Position numbers and translations under genes: made by a program. A DNA stretch of 64,000 bases from Marsupella aquatica (Eukaryota > Plantae > Marchantiophyta): the NCBI GenBank assembly GCA_973895155.1, contig OZ316899.1, positions 3,431,455 through 3,495,454 of the forward strand, read 5' to 3'. Below, piece by piece: positions 8,029-57,660 of this stretch (positions are counted from its first letter, which is position 1; each line of letters opens with the position of its first letter). The notes beneath the pieces are model-generated. The model did no database searches and was not told the origin of the DNA. It saw nothing but the letters and a program-made list of their open reading frames with translations.

Positions 8029-8043
8029 ACCCTAAACCCTAAA
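8011..8043. repeat. Head-to-head plant telomere repeats (TTTAGGG TT / AAACCCT x3) at a deletion junction
   Basis: 31 bp of filler replaces the about 992 bp seen at 1699-2690 in the undeleted LTR; duplicated at 24252-24284. Confidence 0.9.
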
Positions 8044-9024: not shown

Positions 9025-9042
9025 TGGCGCTAGATGGAGGGG
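9025..9042 (+). promoter_or_regulatory. Primer-binding site, probably tRNA-Asn(GUU)
   Basis: TGGCGCTAGATGGAGGGG 4 nt after the LTR end. It matches 17/18 to the 3' end of plant tRNA-Asn as I recall it (CCCCTCCTTCTAGCGCCA); the tRNA identity needs checking. Confidence 0.8.
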
Positions 9043-9088
9043 CATTTCTTAAGCCGTGAGATATGAAGTTAGAACGGAAGAGTAGGTA

Positions 9089-15000: not shown

Positions 15001-15230
15001 ATTCATACCGGTGATCTTGTGCTACTTTATGACAGTAGGTATAGTAGGTTTCCAGGAAAGCTTTACACTCGCTGGTTAGGACCCTTTAGAGTAACCATGA
15101 TGTTCCCCAATGGCTCCGTACAATTGGCCGACATTACGGGAGAGGTATATCCAGTTCGCATCCATTATGACCGCCTCAAGAAATACTATATGGACGAAGA
15201 TGAAGTTGTTCGCGAGGACGCTTCACAATT

Positions 15231-15243
15231 AAGTGGGGAGCTA
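15231..15243 (+). promoter_or_regulatory. Polypurine tract
   Basis: AAGTGGGGAG-CTA directly before the TGTGATG LTR start. Confidence 0.85.
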
Positions 15244-19907: not shown

Positions 19908-19955
19908 CGCAGTTAGACCGAATCACTCATTAACCGCCGTACCGGTGGCGTCACA
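19908..19955 (-). mobile_element. Duplicated 48-bp B LTR start
   Basis: Same as 3669-3716. Confidence 0.92.
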
Positions 19956-21674: not shown

Positions 21675-24269
21675 ATGGAACCCGGGCCGAGGCCGGAGGT
21701 AAGGACGCTGAGGGTGAAAACTCGATTAGGGTTAGGGCACGTTAAGCGTCGGCGGCTAGGAAGGATCAATGGGAAGAAGGACCGGCAGAGGAGAGGGGTA
21801 AGGAGCGCTTGCAGGAGATGGTGGCTCATTTGCGAGCACGAACTAGGCAGACGACTACGGGAGGCCAACTACTGTCAGCTGCTTAGGCAAGCACTCGGGG
21901 AGAGAGTAGATACCGACGATCGACCTAAGGAGGGTATGAGCAACGTCAATCAAGCGGCACATTTCTGGGGATGCCTGTTCGAACGGGCAACTGAGTACAT
22001 CAAGACTTACCAGGACGAGGAATCAGAAAGGGCAGCTCGAGAACGGCAGGAGCTCGCTCGATTGTGGGAGCTGCAGAAGACGGCTTTCTTAGGAGGCGAA
22101 CTCATCAAGGACGAGTTCCTGTGGACGCCTACTTCCAATCAACTCGACGATCTTCTGTTTTGCAAAGACAGCGTCGTCGGCATCCGAGAGGCCATCAAGA
22201 ACTGCAATGACATACACTGGGAATTAAAGGGTAGCACGGAAAGGTGGACCCAGGCAACGGTGCTAGGAGAAACCTCCACGGCAGCAGAGATGAAGAGGAA
22301 GGGAGCCGTCAACGATGAAGCCACCCCGGCAAAAAGAACGAGGTCGGCGGCACCAAAGAAGCCAACCGGGCAGCAGAGCAGGAGGCAGGGAGAAGCCGAA
22401 GAGGAGGAGGTCGATCCCATCAAGGCCATTCCAACCAGGGATGACACCTGGAAGGGCTGGGCGGCAACCCTACCGGTGGAGGTGCAACTACATTTTGCAC
22501 GGGAGGAGGATGCATGCTTTATGGCCATGGAGACCAAGAAGTACCAAGGCTTCATCGCCGGATCCGGCTTAGAGGCCTTTGTAAGATTACCATGGCTGAA
22601 GCCGGAGGTACCGGAGTCAGACCTATTAGAATTCGTGGGGTCATGGGAACCCGAGACCAATTGCACGAGGATATATGGGAAGGATTTCTATCTTACTCCC
22701 AAGGTAATTGCCGAAGTGTTTGGCTTGCCGATAGGCAATAAGACCAAAGTTGATACCAGGAAGACCTTGCCTGACAAGGAGTTCCGGTCGTTCCCCGGGC
22801 CATCAACGAAGAATGGCTTCTTCCGGAACACCTGCACCAACCCGCACATAGGAGAGATGATCGACTTCTTGCGGGTGACCATGCATTGTAACTTGCCGAG
22901 GGCAGAGATCGGCAAGGCACAGGTCTATCCGGCAGAAAGGCCAGACCCAAGCCGGGACTACAACGGGTACCTCCTCAACCAATTGAAGAAGATCTTAAAG
23001 GAGGAGCAGCAGGTAATCGGCATGGGGAGCGTGTCGCGGCTTGGTTATCACATGCCGCTGTTGTGCCGGTATGCCAGAGGTCAGACTTTTGCCCCAGTAC
23101 TTCCCCTGCAGGTAAGGGCACCCGAGGAAGCTCCAACGCCGAGGCCGTTGGCTAAGAAGCCTCAACCACCTGTTAGCCCTACGATCGAGCAGGTGTTTAG
23201 GCCCAGGAAGGAGGACTTGCCGATGCAGCAACCAGGCATGCAGAGTCTGCTGAAACTACTCGAGAAAGAAAAGAGATCGGCATCGGCAACAACAACGGCA
23301 ACGGCAACAATGCAGGACACTACTACAGAGGTAGGCCTACATCGGCTCACAAGAGAAAACCCCTTTGCTGGAGACAAGGAGAGAATCAGGCCGGAATCCA
23401 AGCCAGGTGTTCGAATGTATGTGGGAATCTCAAGCTCCCAATCTGAGGCAGAATTGCCTGAAGCTCCTACCGACGAAGAGGAGAGGGAGAAGCCGGACGT
23501 CCAAGAAGTAGAGGAGGCAGTGGAGGACTGCAGCCATGATAATTCCGGCTATGGGTCGGACCATCACGTTCCAGGAGTAAGGACCTGTGGCCGGTTTGTC
23601 CCCACACTTCCAAGGGTAGTGCGAGGGGACCCCAACCAGCAGAGTAGCCCTGAGTCTCCCCCACCAGATGTTGCTCCCCCGAGCTTTGACGGCATAAAAC
23701 AGACGGTGCAGGAATTTCAGGAGCGAATCAGGCAGGAAGAGGAGGCAGCCCTGGCTAGGGAAAAGGATTTACCAGGAGGAGATTGGCCGGAGGACATCAG
23801 GCGGCTAGCCGAAAAAGGAAGCAAACCTCTAGCCACGATTGAAGAGATCCGCAAGACGGCTTGGGAGCAGAGGCCGCGATGGGCGATGCCGATCACTTCT
23901 ACTTACTCCACCTACGCTAAGAATAGAGCCATGGAGTATGGTGAGATGTGTGGGGAACTTGCGCTCGGCATCTTTGGAGAGGAGTTGGAGGTAGGACCCT
24001 TTTTCCATAGGGAGCAGTTGGAGAAGCACCAATTAGAAGAAGCGGTGGCTTTAGAGAGAAGCAAGAAGGACGAGGTCATTCGGCGGCTTAGGAGGATGGA
24101 AGCCGAGATTGAAGATCTAAGGGCGGCCAAGAAAGCCCAAGATGAACTGCGGATTAAACGGCATGAGCTAAACATCATGCAGGGGCAGTTGGACACCGCG
24201 CAGGCTGATAATCAGAATATCAAGGATAAACTGACTCAGACGCAGGGAGAGTTTAGGGTTAAACCCTAA
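21675..24269 (+). CDS. LTR-encoded ORF truncated to 864 aa
   Basis: Translation identical to 5434-8028. Confidence 0.85.
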   Translation: MEPGPRPEVRTLRVKTRLGLGHVKRRRLGRINGKKDRQRRGVRSACRRWWLICEHELGRRLREANYCQLLRQALGERVDTDDRPKEGMSNVNQAAHFWGCLFERATEYIKTYQDEESERAARERQELARLWELQKTAFLGGELIKDEFLWTPTSNQLDDLLFCKDSVVGIREAIKNCNDIHWELKGSTERWTQATVLGETSTAAEMKRKGAVNDEATPAKRTRSAAPKKPTGQQSRRQGEAEEEEVDPIKAIPTRDDTWKGWAATLPVEVQLHFAREEDACFMAMETKKYQGFIAGSGLEAFVRLPWLKPEVPESDLLEFVGSWEPETNCTRIYGKDFYLTPKVIAEVFGLPIGNKTKVDTRKTLPDKEFRSFPGPSTKNGFFRNTCTNPHIGEMIDFLRVTMHCNLPRAEIGKAQVYPAERPDPSRDYNGYLLNQLKKILKEEQQVIGMGSVSRLGYHMPLLCRYARGQTFAPVLPLQVRAPEEAPTPRPLAKKPQPPVSPTIEQVFRPRKEDLPMQQPGMQSLLKLLEKEKRSASATTTATATMQDTTTEVGLHRLTRENPFAGDKERIRPESKPGVRMYVGISSSQSEAELPEAPTDEEEREKPDVQEVEEAVEDCSHDNSGYGSDHHVPGVRTCGRFVPTLPRVVRGDPNQQSSPESPPPDVAPPSFDGIKQTVQEFQERIRQEEEAALAREKDLPGGDWPEDIRRLAEKGSKPLATIEEIRKTAWEQRPRWAMPITSTYSTYAKNRAMEYGEMCGELALGIFGEELEVGPFFHREQLEKHQLEEAVALERSKKDEVIRRLRRMEAEIEDLRAAKKAQDELRIKRHELNIMQGQLDTAQADNQNIKDKLTQTQGEFRVKP

Positions 24270-24284
24270 ACCCTAAACCCTAAA
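24252..24284. repeat. Head-to-head telomere-repeat scar (duplicate)
   Basis: Same sequence as 8011-8043. Confidence 0.9.
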
Positions 24285-25265
24285 CCTACGGCAGTGGCTG
24301 AGGAGGAAGCGTTGGGGGCGTCCATTAAGGATCCACCACCGGTGTCGTGATGGTGCAAGGGCGCCGTTCCTTTTAGGGAGGGTGGATGTGGAGGGAGGAG
24401 GCGTGAGTGGGCAGGGCGGGCGCTGATCTCCAAGTTTAGGATTAGGATCAGGACCAGGAGCGGCCCTGACACTTAGCTTAGTGGGATTGCGGTTCCACTG
24501 GTAGGAGCAACACTTGTGCTCCTGCCTTGCTGTACATAGGTAGATTCGGGCAAGTAGATTACTGTTAGGTAGATTAGGCTTACGATGCAAAGAATGGCGG
24601 ATCCACTACCAGGATAAGTACCTAGGCAGCGAGGAGCTCAGGGCCTCTTCTTTAGCAAGTTTTTAGTTTGCACCAGCCGGGCTGGGATCAAGTAGTACGA
24701 GAAGCTCTCAGTTAGTCATACAATGACCCTTGTGTATATTCATGTTTCCTCATGCCTAAGAGCTGAATAGAGTTGGCCTCACGGCTTAGTTCGCAGAGCT
24801 TGTGTATGAGATGTACTGTTTGTATGGCAAGTGCATGGTATGACTCAATCAGAATGAGTCATTTTGCTATTTGTGTGTCGCATTAACTTGTGTGAAGAGT
24901 GCCCACATCAACCAGAAGGAAGGAAAGTAAGCAGGGGAGTGAGAGTTGGATGTGTCGAGCTGAGAGAGGTCTTAGCGGCTTAACCAAGCCTATTGGGGAT
25001 CATTCCGGCGGCGGAATCCAAACATACCTAACAAGACAGAGGGGAAGACAGGGGAAGGCCTAGATTAGGCCGGCTACGTATCTCATGACCCGATGAAGGA
25101 TCTGTCCAGTATATGTGTGTAAAATGTTAATAGTAGTAGTAGAAGGTTAGCAGCGTCCCATGCCGCTAAGCCGCGGAAACAGCCTCGCCAAGCGCGAAAC
25201 CCGCGGGAATCGGCTTGAGCTGGGGGTTTCTTGGGTTTAGGGAGCCATGGGATGCACCACATTTT

Positions 25266-25283
25266 TGGCGCTAGATGGAGGGG
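25266..25283 (+). promoter_or_regulatory. Primer-binding site
   Basis: TGGCGCTAGATGGAGGGG after the LTR and TTTT. Confidence 0.8.
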
Positions 25284-25329
25284 CATTTCTTAAGCCGTGA
25301 GATATGAAGTTAGAACGGAAGAGTAGGTA

Positions 25330-28323
25330 ATGACTGACCTTACGCCGAGGGAAGAAAGAGTGATTCAACGGGAGAGAGCTCGACTGCAGCAGCTCGCCGG
25401 GTGGCATGATACACAGCGATTGAGAGGGGCAGAAAGAGCTGGTAGCTCCGAAACTGGAAGTGGCGTCGAAGAAGACATACCAGAAGAAGAGTTGGTAAGG
25501 AGAAGTGAGTCTCCAACCGACATGGGGGAACCAGAGGCACAGCCAGACGAGAGGCCAGGGACCAGACTGAGCCAGCGGTCACGCATACATTACAAGGCAT
25601 TTCATGGGAGAGGAGATGAGGATCCAGACGAATGGTTGGATGATTTCGAGGGAACCGCTGCAGCAAATGGAGAATCGGCCATCAAGATGCAGATTCTTCC
25701 CGACCTGTTCAAGGGTGAGGCTAGGCCTTGGTACAGAGCATTAGATGTGGAAGATCAAGCCATCTGGGATATCTTCAAAACACTCTTTCTTAAGGAGTTT
25801 CGACCCATTGGAACTTCAGAACTAGCAGTGCTGAAGTTGGGACAACTTCGGTTCAAGGAGAACAAATCCTTCAGGAAGTTCTTGCAACGCTTTCAGAAAC
25901 TGGTAAGACGTACAAAGACCAATGCATCTGAAGGTATGCAACTTCAATGGTTGGTGAATGCTTTGCCACAGAAGATGAGTTTTGCAATTAGGAAGGAGAA
26001 CCCAGAGACTTTAGCCGAAGCAATTAAGGATATTCAATTATACATTAATGCAGATATCACAAGCCGGAAGAAACAGCTTAAGTCTGAGAGTTCCTCATCA
26101 GAAGAGGGATCACCCCATAAGAAAAAAGATAAGAAGAAGAAACATTCTAAGAAGTCTAGAAGTGATAACTCAAGCTCGGATAGTGGAAGTAGCAAGAGTG
26201 AGTCATCTTCTAGATCTGAAGAAGAAAAAACTACCAAAAGGAAGGGCAGAAGGAGAGGGAAGACGAAAGTCAAGCTGGAGGCTAAGCCACCAGATAACAT
26301 CGTAGCCCTTACCGAGCAACTTAAGGCTATCATTGCAGAGGTAAAACCGAAGAAGAAGGTAGTACAGGAGGATAGCTCTGTATGGTGTGCCTTATGTTAT
26401 AAAACCGGACACCATAAAGATGCGTGTCCTAAGCTTAATACTAATCATGTTCAACATGTGGCCGAGATCAGACCATGTCAGGGAGAAGTAGAGTACTTTT
26501 TAGGAGATGCCGCTGATAGTGTTTTCGGCATCAGTGAGACTGGAGCACCAGACCTATCCAACCGACCTGCATCTCTATGGTCAGGGTTAAGGAACAATCC
26601 AGGAGAGATATATCCTCGGATTATTCAGAACCCGTCAGTACCTCCTAGGCCAAATGTGCAAAGATTTGCGGCATGCTATAATTGTGGTCAACCTGGCCAT
26701 TTCGCTAGAGAATGCCCGAATGCACGCAAACAGGGTGATGGACAACCAGCTCAGCTATGTATGGGATGCCGACAGGAAGGTCATATGCTAGGGCAATGTC
26801 CTACTTGGTTGGCAGGCCTGGCCACAAATCATAAACTTTTGCCGGTCAAGATCTTACCGCCAGGTACTACCCCCGGAGGAGTTCAAATCAACCACATTGA
26901 ACTAGGATGGCAAGAGGATGCCAAGGCAGAGTTTGTACCATCTGATGATGAGGCCGAAGCCCTATCAACCTTCTCAGAAGAGGATTTAGATCATGATTGC
27001 TACCGGGTCTCTACTCGATCTACCAGAAGGAAGGAAAGGTGGGATGGGCTGGCCAAAAATAAAGGGAAGGTTACGGAGGAAAAGATCGACTCTTCGTCAA
27101 CATCAACGGAAGGAGAAGGGAGGGCTCCGGCAATACAGGTAAGCCATGAGCCCACCAGTGAACCCAATCCTTCACAAGATAGCGACTTCAATCGAGATCA
27201 TCCTAAGTTGTTCTACCCCTCTGTTACGGCTAGTGTTAAGGAACAACTAAGAGAATTAGAAACCCTGGAGAATACCGAAGCCATTGCCAAGGATGTAAAA
27301 CGAGCAAAAGCATTGTTTGCTTCGGAGGACCCAATAGCTGTGGAGACTAGCGTGGCAAAACTGGCCGAATCCAAGATGGAGACACCACCAGAGGAGAAGC
27401 CAATTGTTCCCTATGACCTGGCTAAAGATGTACTAGAATCTAGAGTCTCGGCAACAGTAGGTCAACTATTGAAAAATAGCCCGTACTTCCGGAAGCAATT
27501 AAGGAAGGCTATTCTCGGCAAGCCGAGATTACCCAAGGTAGCAACCAGATCCGACGTACTAATGATAGAAGAAGATCAAGGAGCCCCAGCATTACCATTA
27601 ATGATTCAAGGAGAATTATTACTACGGGTACCCATCGATGGAGGATCAGGGGTATGTATTATGATTGATTCAACAGCAAAAGGGTGGGGTCTAACACCGG
27701 AGATGACTGGAAGAGTGTTGAACATGGCCAATGGATATCAGGTCATTCCCACGGGAGTGTTAACCGGCATCAAGACAGAGATAGGAGGTATCTTCTTTAG
27801 CATTAACTATGTAGTAATGAAGCCGGTAAATCCTACGTCATTCCGGCTATTGATTGGTAGGCCATGGCTGTACCTAGCCGAGGTAATAGAAGATTGGGGT
27901 AAAAAGCAGTTCACTTTCGGGACCCCCTCTATCACGGTATCTTGGGACACTAAGGATGACCGTAGGAAAAGCATAAGGGAAGCAGATGGGTACAACAGTG
28001 GACTGGAGTCAGCCGATGAAGTACGTTGGTTAGAATGCCTCACTGACCTAACCGAAGAAAGTGTCTTTGGACCAGAGGTACCCCCCAGCGGATTATGGCA
28101 AGAACCAATGGAAGGTGACTTGGAAGAAGAAGACGAAGAGGTCGAGGACTGCTTTACAATAGAATCCACCTTTTTAGCTGCAATTCCGGAGGAAGTAAAG
28201 GATGTAGACCAATTGGATGAAACGGCTAAGTGGGGAGCAGTAGCAGGGATAGTGGATTTTCTGCAGGCGTTGTGGCAGAGCCGGCAGGGTTCACAACGCC
28301 ATCGATCATCGGCAAGGAATTAA
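25330..28323 (+). CDS. gag: Gag-protease polyprotein (997 aa), copy 2
   Basis: Differs from copy 1 at four residues that I could see; frameshift signal at 28254-28300. Confidence 0.93.
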   Translation: MTDLTPREERVIQRERARLQQLAGWHDTQRLRGAERAGSSETGSGVEEDIPEEELVRRSESPTDMGEPEAQPDERPGTRLSQRSRIHYKAFHGRGDEDPDEWLDDFEGTAAANGESAIKMQILPDLFKGEARPWYRALDVEDQAIWDIFKTLFLKEFRPIGTSELAVLKLGQLRFKENKSFRKFLQRFQKLVRRTKTNASEGMQLQWLVNALPQKMSFAIRKENPETLAEAIKDIQLYINADITSRKKQLKSESSSSEEGSPHKKKDKKKKHSKKSRSDNSSSDSGSSKSESSSRSEEEKTTKRKGRRRGKTKVKLEAKPPDNIVALTEQLKAIIAEVKPKKKVVQEDSSVWCALCYKTGHHKDACPKLNTNHVQHVAEIRPCQGEVEYFLGDAADSVFGISETGAPDLSNRPASLWSGLRNNPGEIYPRIIQNPSVPPRPNVQRFAACYNCGQPGHFARECPNARKQGDGQPAQLCMGCRQEGHMLGQCPTWLAGLATNHKLLPVKILPPGTTPGGVQINHIELGWQEDAKAEFVPSDDEAEALSTFSEEDLDHDCYRVSTRSTRRKERWDGLAKNKGKVTEEKIDSSSTSTEGEGRAPAIQVSHEPTSEPNPSQDSDFNRDHPKLFYPSVTASVKEQLRELETLENTEAIAKDVKRAKALFASEDPIAVETSVAKLAESKMETPPEEKPIVPYDLAKDVLESRVSATVGQLLKNSPYFRKQLRKAILGKPRLPKVATRSDVLMIEEDQGAPALPLMIQGELLLRVPIDGGSGVCIMIDSTAKGWGLTPEMTGRVLNMANGYQVIPTGVLTGIKTEIGGIFFSINYVVMKPVNPTSFRLLIGRPWLYLAEVIEDWGKKQFTFGTPSITVSWDTKDDRRKSIREADGYNSGLESADEVRWLECLTDLTEESVFGPEVPPSGLWQEPMEGDLEEEDEEVEDCFTIESTFLAAIPEEVKDVDQLDETAKWGAVAGIVDFLQALWQSRQGSQRHRSSARN

Positions 28324-31300
28324 ATACCAAGGGATCGGCATACAAGCCGATTATGAGGGCAGAACAAATTGAGGCCCTATTAGAAGCCGGGAGAGCACAG
28401 CGGCCTGACTCTCAGGAGCAAGAGGTGGATGAGATGGACAGACACAATCCAGAGCCAAGGCAGGAAGGGGAGCCGACCACCAATTCAAAACCGGATAGAC
28501 CGGCAAGGGGACAATCTATGGACACCAAGGAAGGGACCGACTCAGCTAGTCCAGCCGAGATTCCAGTTTATGGAGGTATGAGATTGGAGAGACTGGAAGC
28601 CGAACTGGACCCGAATTTGAAGAAGCAGATTAATATGATCCAAGCACGGCAATATCGGAAGCTCGACTTAGGAGAGGGAAGAGAACTGAACTTAGGGAGA
28701 AACCTAGCACCTGAGCTCGAGAAAGAGATCAGTGACTTATTGATTGAATTTCAGGATGTGTTTGCATGGAGTCACCAAGATCTAAAGGGAGTAGATCCAA
28801 CACTAGGGGAACATCGAATTGATCTCATGTTAGGAGCCAAATCATTTCGACAACCAATTCGAAGGATGAACCCGAAGTATTCCCTGCTGGTCAAAACGGA
28901 AATCGACAAACTAGTGGAAGCTGGATTCATCACTCCAGTCCTGCATTCAGACTGGGTGTCTCCAATTGTGATAGTTCCCAAGAAAGCTGGACCCGATGGT
29001 AAACCCAAGATCCGGGTTTGTCAAGATTACAGGAAACTGAATGAAGCAACATTAAAAGACCATTTTCCTTTACCGTTTACTGATATGGTACTAGACATGG
29101 TAGCCAGTCATGAACTATATTCATTCATGGATGGGTACTCTGGTTATAACCAAATCAGGATTCGGCAGGAAGACCAAATCAAGACGGCCTTCATCACGGA
29201 ATGGGGGATCTATGTCTTCAATCGTATGCCGTTTGGACTCTGCAACGCACCAGCTATGTTTCAATGATTAATGGTGAACATTTTTCATGATTACTTGAGA
29301 AAGTTCATGGAAATCTTCATTGATGACTTTGCAGTATTCGGGAAGGCATCAAAACATGCTAAATACCTCAGGAAAACCTTCATGAGATGTAGAGAGGTGG
29401 GTCTCAAGTTACACCCAGATAAATGTTTCTTTGCAGTAACCGAGGGGGTGCTACTAGGTCACAAGGTATCAAGGAAGGGCATTGAGATTGACAAAGGTAA
29501 GCTAGCAGTATGGCTAGATATCATGCAACCTAAGAACATAAAGGATGTAAGATCCTTCTTGGGATGCATTGGTTACTATCGCCGGTTCATCAAGGATTTT
29601 GCCAAGCTAGCTTTACCATTAACCAACATGCTCAAGGCAGGAGCAGACTTCGAACCCACACCCGAATGAGTCACAGCGGTGGTAGAATTGAAGCAGATGT
29701 TAGTAGAGGCCACAGTCATGATAGCACCGGACTGGAACAAAGATTTTCATGTTTTTGTAGATGTCTCGGGCTTCTGTATCGGCTCAGTACTAAGTCAGTT
29801 GGATGAGAAAGGAAGGGACCATCCCATATACTTCGCAAGCCGTCAGCTTGCCGATGCCGAACGGAACTACTCCACCACAGAGAGAGAAGCATTAGGAGTC
29901 ATTTATTCTTGTAAAAAGTTTAGACATTATTTACTAGGGTACAAGGTAATCTTTCATACCGATCATGAAAGTTTGAAGTACCTAGTCAATAAGCCGGACC
30001 TTACAGGCAGAGTAGCAAGATGGATTTTGCTATTACAGGAGTTTGACTATGAGCTGAGGATCAAGCCGGGAAAGTTACACGCCAATGCCGACTTCTTTTC
30101 AAGGATCACAGGTGAACCTGCCACGGATTGCATCGATGATCGATTCCCCGACGAGGAGCTATTCGTTGTGGAAATAGCTGATACATGGTACCCTGAGATT
30201 TTACAATTTCTCAGCACTTCCAGATTACAGCCAGGATTAAGCCGAGAGCAAGCCGCGGTCTTTGTGCGGAAGGTCAGACAGTATCAGTGCATTAAAGGCA
30301 TACTGCACAAGCATGGAATCAACGACATGATTCAAAGGTGTTTGGAAATGGGAGAGGTAAAACGAGTCCTACGGGCCATGCATGGAGAGGAGGCCGGAGG
30401 ACATTTTGCCCCAGTAACCACGTCTAAGAAGATATTAAATGCCGGTTACTGGTGGCCCACCTTGCACAAGGATGTCTATCAGTTTATCAAACAATGCGAT
30501 CCTTGTCAACGAGCGGGAGGACCAAGGGCGTCCACCAGACATCCACTGCACTCTATTCTACCTCTGGCACCATTCGAGAAGTGGGGTATTGATTACATTG
30601 GACCTCTGAAACCACTGACCCACACTCGACGGAACAAGTACATAATCCTGGCTATGGATTATGCAACTAAATGGGTAGAGGCCAGACCAACAACAAAGGA
30701 TGATGCAATTACTACGGCTAGATTCATGTATGAGCAGATCTTCACCAGGTATGGAGCACCCCTAGAATTAGTTAGTGATAGAGGAACCCATTTTTTGAAT
30801 GATATAATTAGTCGTTTAAATGAGCAGTATTTAGTTAAACATAGGCCTACTACTCCCTACCATCCAAAGGCAAATGGGTTGACAGAACGAGCAAACGGAA
30901 TTATAGGAAAGATATTGAACAAGACAGTAGCTCAGAACAAACTCGATTGGGATGATAAATTGTTTGCTGCTGTTTTTGCTTACAATCTTGCCTATAAATC
31001 CACTACCGGTCATACACCCTTCTTCTTAACCTTTGGACAAGAAGCCCTGGTACCCATGCAACTTGAGATACCGACATTTCAAGTTACAATTGAGGAAAGA
31101 GCCTCAGCGGAGGAGAGCCTAAAGGAGCGAGAATATAGGTTAGAAGCTTTAGAGGAGGCGAGAATGATTTCAGCCGAGAGAGTAGAATATAGACAGAATA
31201 TCATGAAGCAGTAGTATGATAAAAAGTTGAAAGTAGTTAGTATTCACACCGGTGATCTTGTGCTACTTTATGACAGTAGGTATAGTAGGTTTCCAGGAAA

Positions 31301-31496
31301 GCTTTACACTCGCTGGTTAGGACCCTTTAGAGTAACCATGATGTTCCCCAATGGCTCCGTACAATTGGCCAACATTACGGGAGAGGTATATCCAGTTCGC
31401 ATCCATTATGACCGCCTCAAGAAATACTATATGGACGAAGATAAAGTTGTTCGCGAGGACGCTTCACAATTAAGTGGGGAGCTATGTGATGCCTAG
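28254..31496 (+). pseudogene. pol: pol of A copy 2 with stops at 29265, 29667 and 31212
   Basis: Same domains as copy 1; two CGA>TGA and one CAG>TAG changes. Confidence 0.93.
31472..31484 (+). promoter_or_regulatory. Polypurine tract
   Basis: AAGTGGGGAGCTA before the LTR start at 31485. Confidence 0.85.
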
Positions 31497-34400
31497 ACAG
31501 GAATCACTCGGCCAGTTAAGTGGGTAAAGCAGGAAGGCACCCTAGGAACACCTTAGTATAGGGACAAAACAAGGAAAATATAAACAATTAGGGGCAACCA
31601 TGGAACCCGGGCCGAGGCCGGAGGTAAGGACGCTGAGGGTGAAAACTCGATTAGGGTTAGGGCGCGTTAAGCGTCGGCGGCTAGGAAGGATCAACGGGAA
31701 GAAGGACCGGCAGAGGAGAGGGGTAAGGAGCGCTTGCAGGAGATGGTGGCTCATTTGCGAGCACGAACTAGGCAGACGACTACGGGAGGCCAACTACTGT
31801 CAGCTGCTTAGGCAAGCACTCGGGGAGAGAGTAGATACCGACGATCGACCTAAGGAGGGTATGAGCAACGTCAATCAAGCGGCACATTTCTGGGGATGCT
31901 TGTTCGAACGGGCAACTGAGTACATCAAGACTTACGAGGACGAGGAATCAGAAAGGGCAGCTCAAGAACGGCAGGAGCTTGCTCGATTGTGGGAGCTGCA
32001 GAAGACGGCTTTCTTAGGAGGCGAACTCATCAAGGACGAGTTCCTGTGGACGCCTACTTCCAATCAACTCGACGATCTTCTGTTTTGCAAAGACAGCGTC
32101 GTCGGCATCCGAGAGGCCATCAAGAACTGCAATGACATACACTGGGAATTAAAGGGTAGCACGGAAAGGTGGACCCAGGCAACGGTGCTAGGAGAAACCT
32201 CCACGGCAGCAGAGATGAAGAGGAAGGGAGCCGTCAACGATGAAGCCACCCCGGCAAAAAGAACGAGGTCGGCGGCACCAAAGAAGACAGTCGGGCAGCA
32301 GAGCAGGAGGCAAGGAGAAGCCGAAGAGGAGGAGGTCGATCCCATCAAGGCCATTCCAACCAGGGATGACACCTGGAAGGGCTGGGCGGCAACCCTACCG
32401 GTGGAGGTGCAACTACATTTTGCAAGGGAGGAGGATGCATGCTTTACGGCCATGCAGACCAAGAAGTACCAAGGCTTCATGGCCGGATCCGGCTTAGAGG
32501 CCTTTGTAAGATTACCATGGCTGAAGCCGGAGGTACCGGAGTCAGACCTATTAGAATTCGTGGGGTCATGGGAACCCGAGACCAATTGCACGAGGATATA
32601 TGGGAAGGATTTCTTTCTTACTCCCAAGGTAATTGCCGAAGTGTTTGGCTTGCCGATAGGCAATAAGACCAAAGTTGATACCAGGAAGACCTTGCCTGAC
32701 AAGGAGTTCCGGTCGTTCCCCGGGCCATCAACGAAGAATGGCTTCTTCCGGAACACCTGCACCAACCCGCACATAGGAGAGATGATCGACTTCTTGCGGG
32801 TGACCATGCATTGTAACTTGCCGAGGGCAAAGATCGGCAAGGCACAGGTCTATCTGGCAGAGAGGCCAGACCCAAGCCGGGACTACAACGGGTACCTCCT
32901 CAACCAATTGAAGAAGATCTTAAAGGAGGAGCAGCAGGTAATCGGCATGGGGAGCGTGTCGCGGCTTGGCTATCACATGCCGCTGTTGTGCCGGTATGCC
33001 AGAGGTAAGACTTTTGCCCCAGTACTTCCCCTGCAGGTAAGGGCACCCGAGGAAGCTCCAACGCCGAGGCCGTTGGCTGAGAAGCCTCAACCACCTGTTA
33101 GCCCTACGATCGAGCAGGTGTTTAGGCCCAGGAAGGAGGACTTGCCGATGCAGCAACCAGGCATGCAGAGTCTGCTGAAACTACTGGAGAAAGAAAAGAG
33201 ATCGGCATCGGCAACAACAACGGCAACGGCAACAATGCAGGACACTACTACAGAGGTAGGCCTACACCGGCTCACAAGAGAAAACCCCTTTGCTGGAGAC
33301 AAGGAGAGAATCAGGCCGGAATCCAAGCCAGGTGTTCGAATGTATGTGGGAATCTCAAGCTCCCAATCTGAGGCAGAATTGCCTGAAGCTCCTACCGACG
33401 AAGAGGAGAGGGAGAAGCCGGACGTCCAAGAAGTAGAGGAGGCAGTGGAGGACTGCAGCCATGATAATTCCGGCTATGGGTCGGACCATCACGTTCCAGG
33501 AGTAAGGACCTGTGGCCGGTTTGTCCCCACACTTCCAAGGGTAGTGCGAGGGGACCCCAACCAGCAGAGTAGCCCTGAGTCTCCCCCACCAGATGTTGCT
33601 CCCCCGAGCTTTGACGGCATAAAACAGACGGTGCAGGAATTTCAGGAGCGAATCAAGCAGGAGGAGGAGGCAGCCCTGGCTAAGGAAAAGGATTTACCAG
33701 GAGGAGATTGGCCGGAGGACATCAGGCGGCTAGCCAAAAAAGGAAGCAAACCTCTAGCCATGATTGAAGAGATCCGCAGGACGGCTTGGGAGCAGAGGCC
33801 GCGATGGGCGATGCCGATCACTTCTACTTACTCCACCTACGCTAAGAATAGAGCCATGGAGTATGGTGAGATGTGTGGGGAACTTGCGCTCGGCATCTTT
33901 GGAGAGGAGTTGGAGGTAGGACCCTTTTTCCATAGGGAGCAGTTGGAGAAGCACCAATTAGAAGAAGCGGTGGCTTTAGAGAGAAGCAAGAAGGACGAGG
34001 TCATTCGGCGGCTTAGGAGGATGGAAGCCGAGATTGAAGATCTAAGGGCGGCCAAGAAAGCCCAAGATGAACTGCGGATTAAACGGCATGAGCTGAACAT
34101 CATGCAGGGGCAGTTGGACACCGCACAGGCTGATAATCAGAATATCAAGGATAAACTGACTCAGACGCAGGGAGAGTTGGCCGACACGATCAAAGAGAGG
34201 GAGAAGTGGAAGCGAGAGCTGAAGAATACAGAGGAGGCCCACATAACAGCCAACAGCCGGGCCATGGCGGAGACCCAAAGAAAGGAATGGGCGTTGAAGG
34301 GGGAGCTCAAGAAAATCCGCGGAGCCCTTGAGCAGAAGGAGGCCGAGTTAGGGAAATCCTATCAAGGGATTATGGCGCTGCAGCAGGAGCTTGCGTCCCT

Positions 34401-36146
34401 GACGGCCAGCTTCAAGGCCGACCTAAGGGAGAAGGACGAGATACTCGATCAGACTTACGCCAAGATGAACCGAATGGAGTCTGTCATCATTGCAGAGCTC
34501 GACAAGGAGCTAAGAGCAACCCGGGAGGAGAGGACTACCTTGAAACAAGAACGGGAGGAAGCCCAGAAGGAACTAGAGGAGGCGCGCAAGGACTTGGATG
34601 AGACCCAGGAGGAGTTGGAGGAAATCACGAGGAAGATGGAGAACCTCCAGCGGCGGGCCGACAACCAAACGGAGCGGCTGAAGAAACAAGCCGCAGTATT
34701 TAAGTGCTTGTCTTCATCAGGCCCAACTCCAACTGGGGCAACCAAGTTACCAGGAGTGGTACTGGCCGAAGAAAAAGTCGCGCCACCTGCACCAGTGCCG
34801 GAAGTAAGTGGGAAGGGGAAGGGACCAGCTGCCGAACCAGAAAAGAAGAAGAAGCGGAAACCTTCAGGGTCAAGGAGTAATCCGACTCCACAAGCCGTGG
34901 TGACCAAGGAGGTAGAACCAGCACCATCCTCCGGCATAAATACGGCAATAGATCTCGCTATCATCACAAGTGGGGGTGGTGCGGCCCAAGCCGAACTACT
35001 CAGTAATGAGGCCGGTATCCCAAATCCGCCTCTTGAGCAGGCCAGGGAGACCGTAGCCGAGGCTGAGGCCGTAACCGATTCCCGAGCCGATGCCGACGCC
35101 GATGGTGGACCCAGTCAGGCCGATGGAGAGTTGACTCAGTCAAGGGCAGGTAATCTGTCAGAGAATGAACCTACGGCAGTGGCTGAGGAGGAAGCGTTGG
35201 GGGCGTCCATTAAGGATCCACCACCGGTGTCGTGACGGTGCAAGGGTGTCGTTCCTTTTAGGGAGGGCGGACGTGGAGGGAGGAGGCGTGAGTGGGCAGG
35301 GCGGGCGCTGATCTCCAAGTTTAGGATTAGGATCAGGACCAGGAGCGGCCCTGACACTTAGCTTAGTGGGATTGCGGTTCCACTGGTAGGAGCAACACTT
35401 GTGCTCCTGCCTTGCTGTACATAGGTAGATTCGGGCAAGTAGATTACTGTTAGGTAGATTAGGCTTACGATGCAAAGAATGGCGGATCCACTACCAGGAT
35501 AAGTACCTGGGCAGCGGGGAGCTCAGGGCCTCTTCTTTAGCAAGTTTTTAGTTTGCACCAGCCGGGCTGGGATCAAGTAGTACGAGAAGCTCTCGGTTAG
35601 TCATACAGTGACCCTTGTGTATATTCATGTTTCCTCATGCCTAAGAGCTGAATAGAAATGGCCTCACGGCTTAGTTCGTAGAGCTTGTGTATGAGATGTA
35701 CTGTTTGTATGGCAAGTGCATGGTATGACTCAGTCAGAATGAGTCATTTTGCTATTTGTGTGTCGCATTAACTTGTGTGAAGAGTGCCCACATCAACCAG
35801 AAGGAAGGAAAGTAAGCAGGGGAGTGAGAGTTGGATGTGTCGAGCTGAGAGAGGTCTTAGCGGCTTAACCAAGCCTATTGGGGATCATTCCGGCGGCGGA
35901 ATCCAAACATACCTAACAAGACGGAGGGGAAGACAGGGGAAGGCCTAGATTAGGCCGGCTACGTATCTCATGACCCGATGAAGGATCTGTCCAGTATATG
36001 TGTGTAAAATGTTAATAGTAGTAGTAGAAGGTTAGCAGCGTCCCATGCCGCTAAGCCGCGGAAACGGCCTCGCCAAGCGCGAAACCTGCGGGAATCGGCT
36101 TGAGCTGGGGGTTTCTTGGGTTTAGGGAGCCATGGGACGCACCACA
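31485..36146 (+). repeat. 3' LTR of A copy 2 (4662 bp)
   Basis: TGTGATG...GCACCACA between the PPT and the TSD. Confidence 0.94.
31600..35235 (+). CDS. Intact LTR-encoded protein of family A (1211 aa, or 1124 aa from ATG 31861)
   Basis: Uninterrupted frame with a bipartite NLS-like motif (KRK-x10-KRTR), a central domain shared with the B protein, a long heptad coiled coil and no obvious transmembrane stretch. Confidence 0.88.
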   Translation: MEPGPRPEVRTLRVKTRLGLGRVKRRRLGRINGKKDRQRRGVRSACRRWWLICEHELGRRLREANYCQLLRQALGERVDTDDRPKEGMSNVNQAAHFWGCLFERATEYIKTYEDEESERAAQERQELARLWELQKTAFLGGELIKDEFLWTPTSNQLDDLLFCKDSVVGIREAIKNCNDIHWELKGSTERWTQATVLGETSTAAEMKRKGAVNDEATPAKRTRSAAPKKTVGQQSRRQGEAEEEEVDPIKAIPTRDDTWKGWAATLPVEVQLHFAREEDACFTAMQTKKYQGFMAGSGLEAFVRLPWLKPEVPESDLLEFVGSWEPETNCTRIYGKDFFLTPKVIAEVFGLPIGNKTKVDTRKTLPDKEFRSFPGPSTKNGFFRNTCTNPHIGEMIDFLRVTMHCNLPRAKIGKAQVYLAERPDPSRDYNGYLLNQLKKILKEEQQVIGMGSVSRLGYHMPLLCRYARGKTFAPVLPLQVRAPEEAPTPRPLAEKPQPPVSPTIEQVFRPRKEDLPMQQPGMQSLLKLLEKEKRSASATTTATATMQDTTTEVGLHRLTRENPFAGDKERIRPESKPGVRMYVGISSSQSEAELPEAPTDEEEREKPDVQEVEEAVEDCSHDNSGYGSDHHVPGVRTCGRFVPTLPRVVRGDPNQQSSPESPPPDVAPPSFDGIKQTVQEFQERIKQEEEAALAKEKDLPGGDWPEDIRRLAKKGSKPLAMIEEIRRTAWEQRPRWAMPITSTYSTYAKNRAMEYGEMCGELALGIFGEELEVGPFFHREQLEKHQLEEAVALERSKKDEVIRRLRRMEAEIEDLRAAKKAQDELRIKRHELNIMQGQLDTAQADNQNIKDKLTQTQGELADTIKEREKWKRELKNTEEAHITANSRAMAETQRKEWALKGELKKIRGALEQKEAELGKSYQGIMALQQELASLTASFKADLREKDEILDQTYAKMNRMESVIIAELDKELRATREERTTLKQEREEAQKELEEARKDLDETQEELEEITRKMENLQRRADNQTERLKKQAAVFKCLSSSGPTPTGATKLPGVVLAEEKVAPPAPVPEVSGKGKGPAAEPEKKKKRKPSGSRSNPTPQAVVTKEVEPAPSSGINTAIDLAIITSGGGAAQAELLSNEAGIPNPPLEQARETVAEAEAVTDSRADADADGGPSQADGELTQSRAGNLSENEPTAVAEEEALGASIKDPPPVS

Positions 36147-36689
36147 AAATGTCACTGCAGAAACATGGGACATGAAATTTTGTTCTTATCACAATATTTC
36201 TACCCTGTGACGGGGGCTGAATGAAGTCGCAGGGTTTGTGGATCACTTGAGTCAAGTGATTCCTAGGGACAGAGTATGGCCCATGCTCAATGTCCCTGAC
36301 TAGACATTGGAGTATGCCGTCACTTATCAAAAAATTGCATGTGTAAATGAATACACTGGATTTATTTTGAAGGTTATGTGAAGATACAATTGATCCAGTG
36401 TTTTAGTCTATGATGAATGTCGTTCATTCGGACCTGTATGAATGATAAATATACTGATTGACAGCTACCTATATGGATATATTAATAAAAGTGAACAGCA
36501 ATCGGGATGTATGTATGAGATTATGAGTATGCCATTACCATCTATATGGTATATGTATGGAAATAAATATAAGTATGGGCGATGCGCTTGAATGGAGAAT
36601 ATAAAGTGGATCTTGGAATGCTATGTTGTCAGTAACAATTGGTCCTGAAGTTATGTCAGGGTGTGATTCTATGTGTATGGACACAAGTT

Positions 36690-38444: not shown

Positions 38445-38802
38445 TGTGACGCTGCCGGTACGGCGGTTAATGAGTGATTCAGTCTAACTGCGCTCGGCAC
38501 GTGCGTTAGGTGGGTCTTAGGCCGCTATTATTAGCATAACAACAGTATTTAGGTAATCATTAGGGGTAGGACATCATTAGGCAATAAGGGGGACTTCAGG
38601 TTCGGGCTGGCGGCGGGTCGCTATTCGCACACCCGGGTTACGAGCGTGGAGGGGCCCCTCCCTCGGGTCCGTATAACGAACTTAAGGAAGCGGCCACTGA
38701 CGCACGCTGACTCAGACCGGCGGAGTGGCCGGTACACCACAAGCGTGAGCGGTTCAACCTATGGGCGTCGAGGAGACGTCGGGGATCGACAAGCCCTCAA
38801 AG

Positions 38803-38810
38803 TATAAAAG
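38803..38810 (+). promoter_or_regulatory. Candidate TATA box for the LTR gene
   Basis: TATAAAAG about 100 nt before ATG 38911, followed by a CT-rich leader; also present at about 58019. Confidence 0.5.
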
Positions 38811-38910
38811 GGGCGTCAACCCTTTGTAGTGCACCAGTCCATCAGTCCGCGCGCCAGCTTCGACCCCAGCTCTCTCGTTCTCTCTAGGTTGCCACTACTA
38901 TCTCCTCTGA

Positions 38911-41565
38911 ATGTCGCACACGATCCTCTCCAGCTCGGCCATTCGATTCTGGACGCAGTTCCTATCTACCGGAAGGCACTTGGCCGATTCATTGAAACAC
39001 GCCAACCCGCGCCGATACGAGATCGAACGCGAATACGAGAGAGCCATCCGCCTAGCAGGACGACACCACTACATCCTTAACTTTGACTACCCGTCTCAGA
39101 GCGAGCTTTACCGACCAGCTGAGGTATCTGGGTACTTCTTCAACGGAGACAAATATATCGGGTTCTGGGAAGCATTGCTTCGGCTTCCGGATGAGGTCTT
39201 CAATATCCCGGGTACAATCGACCTGCAGCGACATCACTTCGACCACATCCCTGCCCAGGTTTGGGCTGTCATTAACGGCGAGTCCAGTACCAACCGTTCG
39301 ACAAGGGCGTCCGCACTCGCTTCGGAGAACTTCTACCAGCACCTGCAGAGCTTCATGGGAACTCGGCCATCAACCAACATGACCAACTCAGCCGGACCTG
39401 TACCCGTACCCGTACCCGTGCCCGTGCCCATGCAACCCCAGCCTCAACTTCAGCTTCAGCCTCAGCCGCAGCCTAGCCAAACCCCACCACCTATCACCCA
39501 GCCAGCACAGGTACGCTCCGTCATCAACGCTGTGGATCTTAGCGATGATGACGAGGCTACCCCACCCTTGACCAGGCGGCCCAGAGGAACAAGCGCGCGG
39601 GGGGCCGACACTATATCGTCCCCACCCCCTGCTCTGACCCCAGGAGCGGCCCCAGCAGACAACATAGTGATCGTGGCCGCCCCGGGCCCGTTACCAACCG
39701 CAGTGGCACTCCCCAGGCCCGATCGGGAGGATGGGGAAGTATCACCTTCCCCGAGTCAGTCACGGGGAAAGAAGAGGAAGGAATCCGCCACTGCATCCGG
39801 GTTACCGTTGGCCACGGTAGCCGTAGCCAAGGTGTCGATGCATTGCATGGGGGAAAACGTTCATAGCAACATCCTCCATCCCAAGCATGCGGTGTATCTG
39901 AAGACTCAGGGATTTGAGCACCTCACCTCTCTCCCCTGGAACACTTGCAGGTACTACGGGGAGGACATGACAGAATTCGTCAAGAATTATGACGACGTAC
40001 GTCAACAAACTCGGCTGCGGGGAAGGAATATGTCCCTCACAGAAGAACGGCTCAAGATGATCTTCGTGTTACCCAAAGGTGACCATCGAGTCGAATCACG
40101 GGCTCCCGGGGGCAAGGAGGCCAAGTACCAATCTTCAAGTTTTCCCTCAGAGGGATCAGTAGACAACGGGTTCGTGATGAGGACCTGCCTCATGCCCGAG
40201 ATAGCTGAGCGGCTGGAGTTCCAGAGGTACGCTCTCCACATGATGGAACCCCGGGGGGAGATCTCCGCCACCCAGGTTATCCAGGTCGAGAACTATCGAC
40301 CTAGGAAATGGGCGTCGTACTTCGCTAAGAAATTCCATGAAGAGATGGAGCGGCGAAGGAAGACGCTGTACATTGGCGGGAAGGCGTATTTTGCTAGCCA
40401 TATCAAAATCATTCTTGAGTGGTACGCCCGGTTTGATCGACGAACCCTTCCCCGCATCAACGTTACAAAGCTGGTCCCAGCTAGGTGGGTTTTTCCGGCA
40501 TTGGAGAGACGGCCCCAACCCGAGGCCCGAAGTCCAGTGGACACGCCAGCTTCACCCACCCCACCTCCACAAATAGCTGTAATCGTAACCGAGGAGGCGC
40601 CGGAGGGGTCGGTCGTCGCAACCGTTGATGCGATCCAACTAGCCGGGCTAAGTACAGAAGTTGGTACGGCAGAGGTCTTACCCGAACCCGGGTCTCCCAA
40701 GGACCCGCCGGTGGCAATTCCGGAGAACCGGACATCGCTGCAGGAGGACACTCCAGCCCCTTCCAACGTTATGTCCCCAGGGCTGGACGTCACTGCCCCG
40801 GCCCCTGCGCGTGTTGATGTCTGCCCGTGCCCAAATCCGGACAGGCACAACTTGGACCACCCGGAACTCTTCGTACAGGGTACGTTTCTGAACGGGCTTC
40901 TGGGAGATTTCTCTCATCAAATTGCCCGGGATACCGGGGAGTTCATGGCCCAGAAGGTAGCCTGTTTCTTCAATCAGGAGTTGGTTGCCGCCGTAAAGGC
41001 AGGTCGGGCCCAGTCGGAGGCCCTTCAGAGGATAGAGCGGTACCGGGTGGAGTCCGTGTACCTAAAGAACGAAGTGGCGGCTCAAGAGGCTGAGCTTCTG
41101 CAACTACGACCCAAGGTTGTAGCCGCCGATGAGTTGTTAGCAAAGGCGTACGCTCTTACCGCCCTAGCCGAACAGGCCAAAGCTGGGAACGAGGCCGAGA
41201 TTACACGACTCCGGAACCAGATTGACAGTTTGAAGAAACAAGCTGTCACCTGGCAGAAAGACCTGGAGGAGGCCGAGGAGCGAGCCCAGCGGGACGCGAC
41301 AGAGATAGCCACGCTGCAGGCCGAGATGGCGCGGCTCCAAACCGAGGCCGAGAAGCAGGACCAGCTGGCGAGTAAACTGACGAGCGACGCCCAGCAGCTG
41401 GAGGAGGCATGTCAGGAGGCAGCAGAGGAGACGGACGCGGCGAGGCGAGAGAACGAATCTCTGCTGGACCAGGTCCAGCTCCTCAAAGCGGACAATGACA
41501 GGCTTCGAAGGCAGCGGGATGGCCGTTCCCATTCGGGCGGCTCTGGCAAGCGTGCCAGGCATTAG
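38911..41565 (+). CDS. Intact LTR-encoded protein of family B (884 aa)
   Basis: Open frame wholly inside the LTR; RGKKRK and KRARH basic motifs; central domain alignable with the A protein; C-terminal coiled coil. Confidence 0.88.
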   Translation: MSHTILSSSAIRFWTQFLSTGRHLADSLKHANPRRYEIEREYERAIRLAGRHHYILNFDYPSQSELYRPAEVSGYFFNGDKYIGFWEALLRLPDEVFNIPGTIDLQRHHFDHIPAQVWAVINGESSTNRSTRASALASENFYQHLQSFMGTRPSTNMTNSAGPVPVPVPVPVPMQPQPQLQLQPQPQPSQTPPPITQPAQVRSVINAVDLSDDDEATPPLTRRPRGTSARGADTISSPPPALTPGAAPADNIVIVAAPGPLPTAVALPRPDREDGEVSPSPSQSRGKKRKESATASGLPLATVAVAKVSMHCMGENVHSNILHPKHAVYLKTQGFEHLTSLPWNTCRYYGEDMTEFVKNYDDVRQQTRLRGRNMSLTEERLKMIFVLPKGDHRVESRAPGGKEAKYQSSSFPSEGSVDNGFVMRTCLMPEIAERLEFQRYALHMMEPRGEISATQVIQVENYRPRKWASYFAKKFHEEMERRRKTLYIGGKAYFASHIKIILEWYARFDRRTLPRINVTKLVPARWVFPALERRPQPEARSPVDTPASPTPPPQIAVIVTEEAPEGSVVATVDAIQLAGLSTEVGTAEVLPEPGSPKDPPVAIPENRTSLQEDTPAPSNVMSPGLDVTAPAPARVDVCPCPNPDRHNLDHPELFVQGTFLNGLLGDFSHQIARDTGEFMAQKVACFFNQELVAAVKAGRAQSEALQRIERYRVESVYLKNEVAAQEAELLQLRPKVVAADELLAKAYALTALAEQAKAGNEAEITRLRNQIDSLKKQAVTWQKDLEEAEERAQRDATEIATLQAEMARLQTEAEKQDQLASKLTSDAQQLEEACQEAAEETDAARRENESLLDQVQLLKADNDRLRRQRDGRSHSGGSGKRARH

Positions 41566-42478
41566 CGGCGGAGTAGGAATAGATTAGGATTAGGATTGGC
41601 TTAGTCAGGCTCTTGGGACAGGCACCTGCCTTAGGTACAGTAGCGCTGCCCTACTATCCAGCCTGCGTAGATTAGGATCTTCTAATAAGACACAGCCGTT
41701 TTCCGGCCTGACTGTCAGCTTAGTTAGGACCTTAGTCAGCGAATCTTCGGCGAGAGGACACCCCGTTCCTCGGCTCTTAGTATTTAGTGCACCCCTCGGT
41801 AGAGGCAAGGGGGGGGGGTTTTTAGTTTCAGAGTCGGACATCCGCGGGACATGCGGGGAGTCCCGACCTCTGGGAATGACAGAGTACCAAGGGGAGGGGG
41901 TAGGACTAAGCTCGCCGGGCGAGTGCGGAGCCGGGCTCCGTTGTAGTGTGCACCCTCGGCCTTGAACCTGTGCATTCCAGGGCTGTCGTGTCAACTAAGT
42001 GTACGCATATGTTCCCTTTGTAGTAAAATCCTTTCCCATCATTTTCCTTCGTGTAAATCGAGATTGTATGCATGTGTGTGCATATGTGTGTGGGTTTCTC
42101 GTATATGGGTGGCAGCGCCAGGCCGAACGCACTACCCGAGACGTGCACAGGGTGCAGCCTGCGGGTAAGTGGTTGCGAGCACGGGTTGAGGACCTGTATC
42201 ATCGAATCCGGATCGAAGGCGGACAACACGAAGGCTTAGAAGCCCTTAAGCCGGGGTTGATCCTGCTATCGACTAAGGTACGTTCCGGCGGCGAAACACA
42301 AACCATACCTAGGTGGTGTTTGTATTTAGCAGTATGCGCACTTAGCGCTAGTTTACGAGAATAAGGTGCATTACGTGCTTCCCTTCCTGCCCGAACCCTC
42401 AGATTTACGAGGGATGTGCCCGTCTAAGCTGAAGTCTGAGTTAAGGCCGAAGCCTACGACGTGACATAGCCTTTGTTT

Positions 42479-42496
42479 TGGCGCTAGATGGAGGGG
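42479..42496 (+). promoter_or_regulatory. Primer-binding site of B (identical 18-mer to A)
   Basis: TGGCGCTAGATGGAGGGG 12 nt after the LTR end. Confidence 0.8.
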
Positions 42497-42589
42497 GCAC
42501 TCTACATATCGTAGAGGGGAGACATGTGCGTATTCACCTAGGCAGGATACATCAGGACGTAGTACTAACCATTGCATTTATATGAGTAA

Positions 42590-43359
42590 ATGCCCGTCAC
42601 TCGTTCTCAAGCAGCTTACTTGAGGAGATTGACCAGCGAACGAGAAAGTGCAACCACAACAAGCTCCGACTCGTCGGGCTCGGAGGACTCGCAATCGTCC
42701 CGACGTATGAACATACCCCCGGGATCTTCGGGGTCCGGTTCGACCGGCCCTGCTGCGGTTCCACCACCACCACCACCACCACCACCACCTATGGCAGCCG
42801 CTCCACCGGTGGCCCGCGCTGCTCAGGCGCCTCCACAAATATCACAACGATCGCGATTTCATTATCGACCTTTCAAAGGGCGTCATGGGGATGATCCGGA
42901 TGAATGGTTGGATGAGTTTGAAGCCACTGCTAAAGCTAATGGGGAAGACGCCATTAAGCTAACCGTCCTCCCGGGAGTGATGCGGGGAGAAGCTCGTCCA
43001 TGGTACAACTCGTTACCACCCGGGACTACCTGGGCACAATTCCAAGCTGCATTGCTGCAGGAGTTTCGTGCCATTGGATCAGAACAGCGTTCTCTATTAA
43101 AGATTGGCCAGCTTCGCATGGGAAAAAAAGAGTCCCTGCGGAAGTTCATTCATAAGTTTCAGAAACTTGCGGCCAAGATCCCGCCCAGGCCAGGAGACGC
43201 GCTCCAGCTTACATGGTTCCTTCATGGTTTGCCCACGAATATGCAATTCTGGGTACACCAGAATAATCCAATTTCAATGCAGGCGGCCATAGCGTGCGCC
43301 GAAACTTACCGGGAATCCACCTATAACTCCCGACGGAGCCAGCGAGCACGCCGCAAGAA
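42590..43359 (+). pseudogene. gag: gag of B, 3'-truncated
   Basis: ISQRSRFHYRPFKGRHGDDPDEWLDEFE aligns with A gag; the sequence switches to antisense A integrase at 43360. Confidence 0.9.
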
Positions 43360-46300: not shown

Positions 46301-46403
46301 TCGTAATCGGCTTGTATGTCGATCCCTTGGTATTTAATTCCTTGCCGATGATCGATGGCGTTGTGAACCCTGCCGGCTCTGCCACAACGCCTGCAGAAAA
46401 TCC
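43360..46403 (-). pseudogene. pol: pol of A copy 3 (stops at 46071 and 44514; 3'-truncated)
   Basis: RT-RH-INT fragments in ORFs 46071-46427, 44514-46040 and 43209-44489. Confidence 0.9.
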
Positions 46404-49327: not shown

Positions 49328-49396
49328 TACCTACGCTTCCGTTCTAACTTCATATCTCACGGCTTAAGAAATGCCCCCTCCATCTAGCGCCAAAAA

Positions 49397-57647: not shown

Positions 57648-57660
57648 AAGCAGGGAGCTA
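57648..57660 (+). promoter_or_regulatory. Polypurine tract of B
   Basis: AAGCAGGGAG-CTA directly before TGTGACG. Confidence 0.85.

Follow-up and report, generated by a model that had tools for sequence, protein, structure and literature searches.

Within a 64,000-nt window of the Marsupella aquatica genome (contig OZ316899.1, positions 3,431,455-3,495,454 of the forward strand, assembly GCA_973895155.1), two diverged retrotransposon families, here called A and B, carry related genes inside their long terminal repeats (LTRs). This LTR gene is under purifying selection in both families. Family A is a young, very abundant Ty3/gypsy retrotransposon. An extra gypsy gene, of the plant mobile domain (PMD)/VANC type by predicted fold, has apparently moved inside the LTR and has been kept in both families. 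Because the core of the protein is predicted to resemble the DNA-binding part of the anti-silencing protein VANC21, the protein may well bind the DNA of its own element and shield the family from host silencing, a reading to which we assign a probability of about 0.5.

A gene within the family A repeat

The gene was located in the 3ˊ LTR of an element designated A2. The first and last 20 nt of this LTR are found at 21560/25261 and again at 31485/36146, and the stop codon of pol is found 10-12 nt into the 3ˊ copy. An internal 3ˊ region is consequently absent, and the extra gene is part of the repeat itself. The features of this LTR are as follows, with amino acids (aa) numbered from the first codon of the open frame and NLS denoting a nuclear localization signal.

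31485-36146, + strand: A2 3ˊ LTR, 4,662 bp, TG...CA
31579-31584, + strand: the only TATA-box match in this LTR, at LTR position 95; putative promoter of the LTR gene (pattern match)
31600-35235, + strand: 1,211-codon open frame, with a likely 5ˊ leader in codons 1-87
31861-35235, + strand: probable coding region under purifying selection, beginning at M88 (1,124 aa)
31861-32172, + strand: N-terminal helical domain, aa 88-191, common to B and liverwort homologs
32251-32268, + strand: NLS-like motif PAKRTR, aa 218-223
32374-33027, + strand: central domain, aa 259-476, net basic and with a predicted fold like that of VANC21
33940-34716, + strand: predicted coiled coil, aa 781-1039
34843-34860, + strand: NLS-like motif KKKKRK, aa 1082-1087
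35236-36146, + strand: 3ˊ non-coding LTR, with a TTAGG cluster after the stop and a TGTA/T-rich stretch at about 35618-35710 (putative 3ˊ-end signals)
35888-35915, + strand: shared non-coding motif of about 28 nt, near the LTR 3ˊ end

An earlier sequence-only reading had described a 4.66-kb LTR with a 1211-aa open reading frame (ORF). Both are present, although the protein itself is likely shorter. The N-terminal domain was modelled from B and four homologs with A left out, and this profile, searched in 83 proteins, matches A at aa 88-191 (E 5e-6). This match begins at M88, and the protein therefore likely starts there. Codons 1-87, which begin 21 nt after the TATA match, are probably a leader. 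Less probably, translation may start at M1, as a common 3-nt deletion within these codons in public contigs preserves the frame and most of the few variants there are synonymous (see below). The N-terminal domain gave no clear match among folds.

Heptad-rich, proline-free stretches are found at A776-1041 (144 windows, shuffle maximum 39) and B735-884 (49 windows, shuffle maximum 16; 100 shuffles each). Basic motifs occur in both proteins, with KKRK and KRAR being those of B. No transmembrane or signal-like hydrophobic segment is present, the Kyte-Doolittle 19-residue maxima being 1.09 in A and 1.33 in B. These observations agree with the NLS-like motifs, coiled coil and lack of a membrane helix or signal peptide reported previously and, together with the predicted fold of a DNA-binding protein, support the earlier proposal of a nuclear accessory factor rather than an envelope. 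The sense-strand site downstream of pol is that of env-like ORFs (PMC7264820), and a long predicted coiled coil would suit an env-like or particle-associated factor serving particle assembly or cell-to-cell movement. However, such a role is quite improbable given the absence of a hydrophobic segment, the NLS-like motifs and the predicted fold, and the protein matches no viral structure at E<=0.001.

Homology between the family A and family B proteins

The corresponding features of family B, which is flanked by a target-site duplication (TSD), are given below.

38445-42466, + strand: family B 5ˊ LTR, 4,022 bp; partner LTR at 57661-61674; TSD CCTTT/CCTTT
38911-41565, + strand: family B LTR gene, 884 aa, with N domain, core, coiled coil and basic tail

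Residues A289-468 align with B325-507 (nt 32464-33003 and 39883-40431) with 52 of 186 positions identical (28%, E 1e-17). The Smith-Waterman score of 188 was reached by none of 500 global and none of 500 windowed shuffles (maxima 78 and 117), and the domain-only score was reached by none of 2000 shuffles of either kind. The homology of the central domains, proposed earlier from an alignment by eye, thus withstands shuffling. The motifs quoted for that alignment agree in position, but KDFYLT and PRAEI come from other A copies and read KDFFLT and PRAKI here.

A hidden Markov model of the A and B cores, searched against 1.84 billion proteins, matched 66 at the cut-off of E<=0.001. Among the 20 of these homologs whose sources were looked up, the named organisms are Calypogeia fissa (8) and Riccia sorocarpa (1), names that by themselves make a liverwort host likely. 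The order of N domain, low-complexity linker, core and coiled coil is found in A, B and the homologs P0082 and P0074, and a basic C-terminal tail is found in A, B and P0082. In a tree, the A and B cores are assigned to separate subgroups, both well supported, of a deep protein family. The simplest reading is therefore that the LTR gene is older than the A/B family split, as had been suggested, although a later swap of the gene between families may be the explanation instead.

Selection on the gene

Variants were compared among the independent A LTRs of the window, using an expectation that keeps the base change and the CG/CHG context. Codons 88-1035 carry 73 distinct variants, 34 of which are synonymous compared to 23.2 expected (P=0.005). 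In codons 1-87, three of four variants are synonymous (P=0.14), and codons 1036-1211 show no synonymous excess (5/23, with 6.1 expected). Public contigs from four of the six listed runs provide a second measure. Of the 12 listed indels, only one falls in the region from M88 to the stop, which makes up 72% of the LTR (P=6e-6). Among the 35 best-supported coding substitutions from these contigs, a list that precedes 378 further rows, 16 are synonymous, which is a modest excess.

Predicted fold and possible function

The fold predicted for the common core of A and B resembles the DNA-binding part of VANC21 (PDB 9LNJ, 9LNK), at an identity of 8-12%, and this anti-silencing protein is the only solved structural match of the core. 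By this common predicted fold, the protein falls within the PMD/DUF1985 (VANC) structural group. A resemblance to Transposase_32, PMD and Athila ORF1, noted earlier from a residue pattern, persists as a remote lead (Atlas scores of 0.81-0.91, with Athila leads at 0.88-0.89). However, neither A nor B matches Pfam PF03078, PF20167, PF10536 or PF09331 (DUF1985) at the cut-off, and one of the 66 homologs matches Transposase_32 with E 0.006 and 16.9 bits, compared to a cut-off of 45. As modelled, the structural link to VANC21 is the stronger one. We hypothesize that the LTR protein has an anti-silencing role, with the predicted fold as the evidence behind it. A VANC-like fold in an extra ORF makes this function directly testable on the element's own LTR.

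The fold, the NLS-like motifs and the coiled coil would also fit a nuclear DNA or chromatin binder that leaves silencing marks untouched and simply activates the LTR promoter in trans, or tethers the integration complex to chosen chromatin. The integrase lacks a chromodomain match. In addition, insertions of one family within the other occur in the window, with A found in a B LTR at 3668/19907 and a third A element in B gag, a pattern that could stem from targeting. Such nesting is nonetheless expected where high-copy families are dense, and the one solved structural match is to an anti-silencing protein. An activator or tether is a possibility that we hold as doubtful.

A MAIN/MAIL1-like repressor that limits its own copy number or silences rival families is unlikely. 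Host PMD proteins were found as silencing factors of transposable elements (PMC5418596), and the dosage of a gene carried by each LTR would rise as copies accumulate. However, MAIL1 and MAIN were later tied to opposing Polycomb silencing, with the effect on transposable elements arising partly via MORC1 expression (bioRxiv 2024.09.27.615353), and the youth and abundance of family A speak against self-limitation.

Non-coding parts of the repeat

Each family has a single TATA match, at LTR position 95 in A and 359 in B, and in A the TGTA/T-rich stretch corresponds to LTR positions of about 4134-4222. The motif of about 28 nt occurs in all eight LTR copies of A and B (chance mean 0.01). On the + strand, TTAGG occurs 11 times in A (2.6 expected) and 10 times in B (2.4 expected), and GGATTA is enriched 4.8-fold in B only (one copy per family). 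In addition, about 60 nt spanning the pol end, the polypurine tract (PPT) and the LTR start are 87% identical between families (31434-31493 and 57610-57669), whereas their pol DNA is otherwise about 67% identical. This match may be a conserved cis-element or may reflect recombination between families. These three shared features run counter to the earlier statement that the LTR DNA is otherwise dissimilar.

How gag-pol is expressed can be envisaged in two ways. The gene may lie in a very long R/U5, with gag expressed via splicing or a second promoter. Alternatively, it may lie in U3, with genomic RNA starting from near the LTR 3ˊ end. A TACTAAC branch-point-like word is located just 5ˊ of the gag start codon in B (within 42467-42590), and is a possible splice acceptor signal for gag mRNA. 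At 19763 (position 4520 of the 3ˊ LTR of element A1) there is a second TATAAA, not found in the intact LTR, which would mark an alternative promoter site near the LTR 3ˊ end.

Proposed mechanism

We infer the following course of events for anti-silencing. An accessory gene located between pol and the 3ˊ LTR would have become part of the LTR in the ancestor of A and B, captured when plus-strand priming shifted to the PPT at the pol end. Transcription would begin at the only TATA, close to where the LTR starts, and end at the TGTA/T-rich stretch, making each LTR, solo LTRs included, a complete transcription unit. The protein would then enter the nucleus, oligomerize via its coiled coil, bind short motifs in the non-coding LTR (TTAGG and the 28-nt motif being candidates) and block or remove repressive marks such as DNA methylation or H3K27me3. 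Acting in trans, a few intact LTRs could serve many broken copies.

Several observations temper the evidence for selection and for the candidate motifs. The full frame is kept in only one of six A LTR copies (one of four independent copies) and in one of two B copies, broken copies outnumber intact ones in the window, and none of the three A elements has an uninterrupted pol. TTAGG was chosen after viewing all 5-mers, its count in A does not exceed that of the best shuffle, and it is raised in the flanks too. Neither TTAGG nor the 28-nt motif is family-specific. No tandem motif array was seen in the intact non-coding parts of A, a comparison that has little power with one copy per family. The broken copies, like the modest synonymous excess in the public contigs, would suit a captured passenger without present function, open only through recent amplification. 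Such a passenger is the least probable of the explanations considered, given the selection tests and a three-part layout that A, B and full-length homologs have in common at only about 28% identity.

More tentatively, the liverwort gypsy LTR as a whole could be an anti-silencing cassette of promoter, VANC-fold gene and target motifs, in which copies and solo LTRs add a family-specific trans-acting de-silencer. If true, it would have no precedent, in the literature covered, as a sequence-specific anti-silencing system carried by a plant retrotransposon. It would also extend the VANC/PMD fold to transposons beyond the flowering plants and favour a retrotransposon origin of the fold. Solo-LTR formation is the host's normal way of removing elements; here the leftover repeat would retain the gene, changing the cost of removal.

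Structure and insertion site of element A2

The remaining features of A2, including its primer-binding site (PBS) and pol domains (reverse transcriptase, RT; RNase H; integrase), are as follows.

21555-21559, + strand: left TSD, AAACG
21560-36146, + strand: element A2, Ty3/gypsy, family A
21560-25261, + strand: 5ˊ LTR, 3,702 bp, carrying a deletion of about 960 bp
25266-25283, + strand: PBS, identical in sequence in families A and B
25330-28323, + strand: gag-protease ORF, 997 aa; Retrotrans_gag and zf-CCHC matched (Pfam) on the near-identical A1 copy
28353-31496, + strand: pol (RT, RNase H, integrase), interrupted in A2
31472-31481, + strand: PPT, directly after pol and 3 nt before the LTR TG at 31485
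36147-36151, + strand: right TSD, AAATG

The A2 LTRs are collinear at both ends and show mismatches at 52 of 3,693 aligned positions (1.41%). The LTR gene of the 5ˊ copy is cut at 864 aa by the deletion, which is shared with the 5ˊ LTR of A1 and bridged by plant telomere repeats of opposite orientation (24252-24286, with a copy near 8011-8045). These repeats, TTTAGGG followed by 3.9 copies of TAAACCC, suggest a telomerase-type filler at a repaired break. The 5ˊ LTR ends with CA at 25261, and 4 nt further on the PBS begins (TGGCGCTAGA...), whereas in B the PBS is 12 nt past the LTR end. Presumably, the PBS of both families is tRNA-Asn-like.

The TSD pair differs by one C>T change at a CpG. When joined, the flanks of A2 make a host repeat, an empty copy of which lies at about 20390-20590. 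This repeat is small, and its copies (20390-20590 and 36147-36321) are about 75% alike. Moreover, a public contig continues directly from 21549 to 36158, lacking A2. The element limits drawn earlier from PPT/TG, CA/PBS and the TSD are thereby confirmed on independent grounds.

The paired TG...CA LTRs, PBS, PPT and 5-bp TSD of A2 are those of Ty3/gypsy elements, as is the order gag-protease-RT-RNase H-integrase (Pfam, run on the A1 copy). In the 889-aa pol of A1, no chromodomain family was matched at E<=1, the CHDCR type having no Pfam model among those checked, and a single RNase H was found with no additional (archaeal-type) one. A viral-contig scan with the family A RT gave no match. The gag-protease and pol frames differ (-1) in both A1 and A2 (12050-12120 and 28290-28360).

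Other elements and rearrangements in the window

A tandem duplication of 16.24 kb is present in positions 1-36146. Element A1 (5319-19907) is chimeric, resembling A2 up to about 12,500 (11 differences in 8.8 kb) and diverging beyond that point (42 in 2.7 kb). The 3ˊ LTR of A1 corresponds to the upstream LTR ending at 3668. The mismatched flanks of A1 (AAACG/CGCAG) would be explained by unequal crossover of two A elements within pol. At 3669-3716 and 19908-19955, an A LTR is followed by the first 48 nt of the B LTR in inverted orientation, indicating insertion of A in a B LTR. A third A element (A3; 43360-53919, - strand) is inverted inside B gag, and its 3ˊ LTR is missing along with part of B gag-protease.

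Comparison with known systems

Extra ORFs of plant LTR retrotransposons are described as lying in the internal region (PMC7264820), and what they do is an open question (PMC7264820, PMC6317226). Liverwort retrotransposon lineages have been listed (PMC10508981, PMC12885004), and no paper on a plant LTR holding a whole gene was found by exact-phrase matching in open-access text. Among known elements, Tat/Ogre (PMC4408406, PMC6317226, PMC5418596) is similar in being a gypsy group of non-chromovirus type, with a large extra ORF that has a PMD-like domain and a C-terminal coiled coil but no membrane segment. Tat lineages carry PMD and coiled-coil extra ORFs (PMC4408406), and gypsy-encoded PMD-A is found in angiosperms (PMC5418596). 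However, the Tat/Ogre ORFs are internal (5ˊ sense or 3ˊ antisense), whereas the family A gene is wholly in the LTR, present twice and retained in solo LTRs. Family A also differs by lacking a PF10536 match and an additional RNase H among the domains found, and by its extra N-terminal domain.

The 3ˊ sense extra ORF of Athila (PF03078), to which the Transposase_32 (PF20167) lead is related, is likewise downstream of pol, with a coiled coil and no chromodomain or additional RNase H, and its Atlas leads are those given above. Compared by layout and domains rather than by lineage tree, the Athila ORFs are placed after pol and before the PPT, whereas in family A the PPT abuts the pol end and the gene follows it. 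The family A protein also has neither a Pfam match nor a transmembrane segment.

VANC21 resembles the core in predicted fold, but comes from VANDAL21, a dicot Mutator-like DNA transposon (PMC5735166), whereas the family A gene is in a liverwort gypsy LTR. Motifs and tandem arrays have been defined for VANC proteins (PMC5735166), and no family-specific tandem array was seen in A, for which DNA binding and demethylation are predictions from the fold. VANC, DUF1985 and PMD/MAIN have been linked by structure (PMC13547354, bioRxiv 2024.09.27.615353). VANC has been ascribed to capture of a MAIN-like host gene (PMC13547354) and the origin of the PMD/VANC fold is left open (PMC5418596). The domain in liverwort elements bears on where this fold arose.

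Mouse mammary tumour virus (MMTV) provides a precedent for a gene in an LTR (PMC3026287), as its sag is a complete accessory gene in an unusually long repeat. That LTR is 1.3 kb in a mammalian retrovirus, and the unrelated, immune-acting Sag is made from spliced RNAs begun upstream. In contrast, the 4.66-kb family A LTR seems to hold its own putative TATA ahead of the gene.
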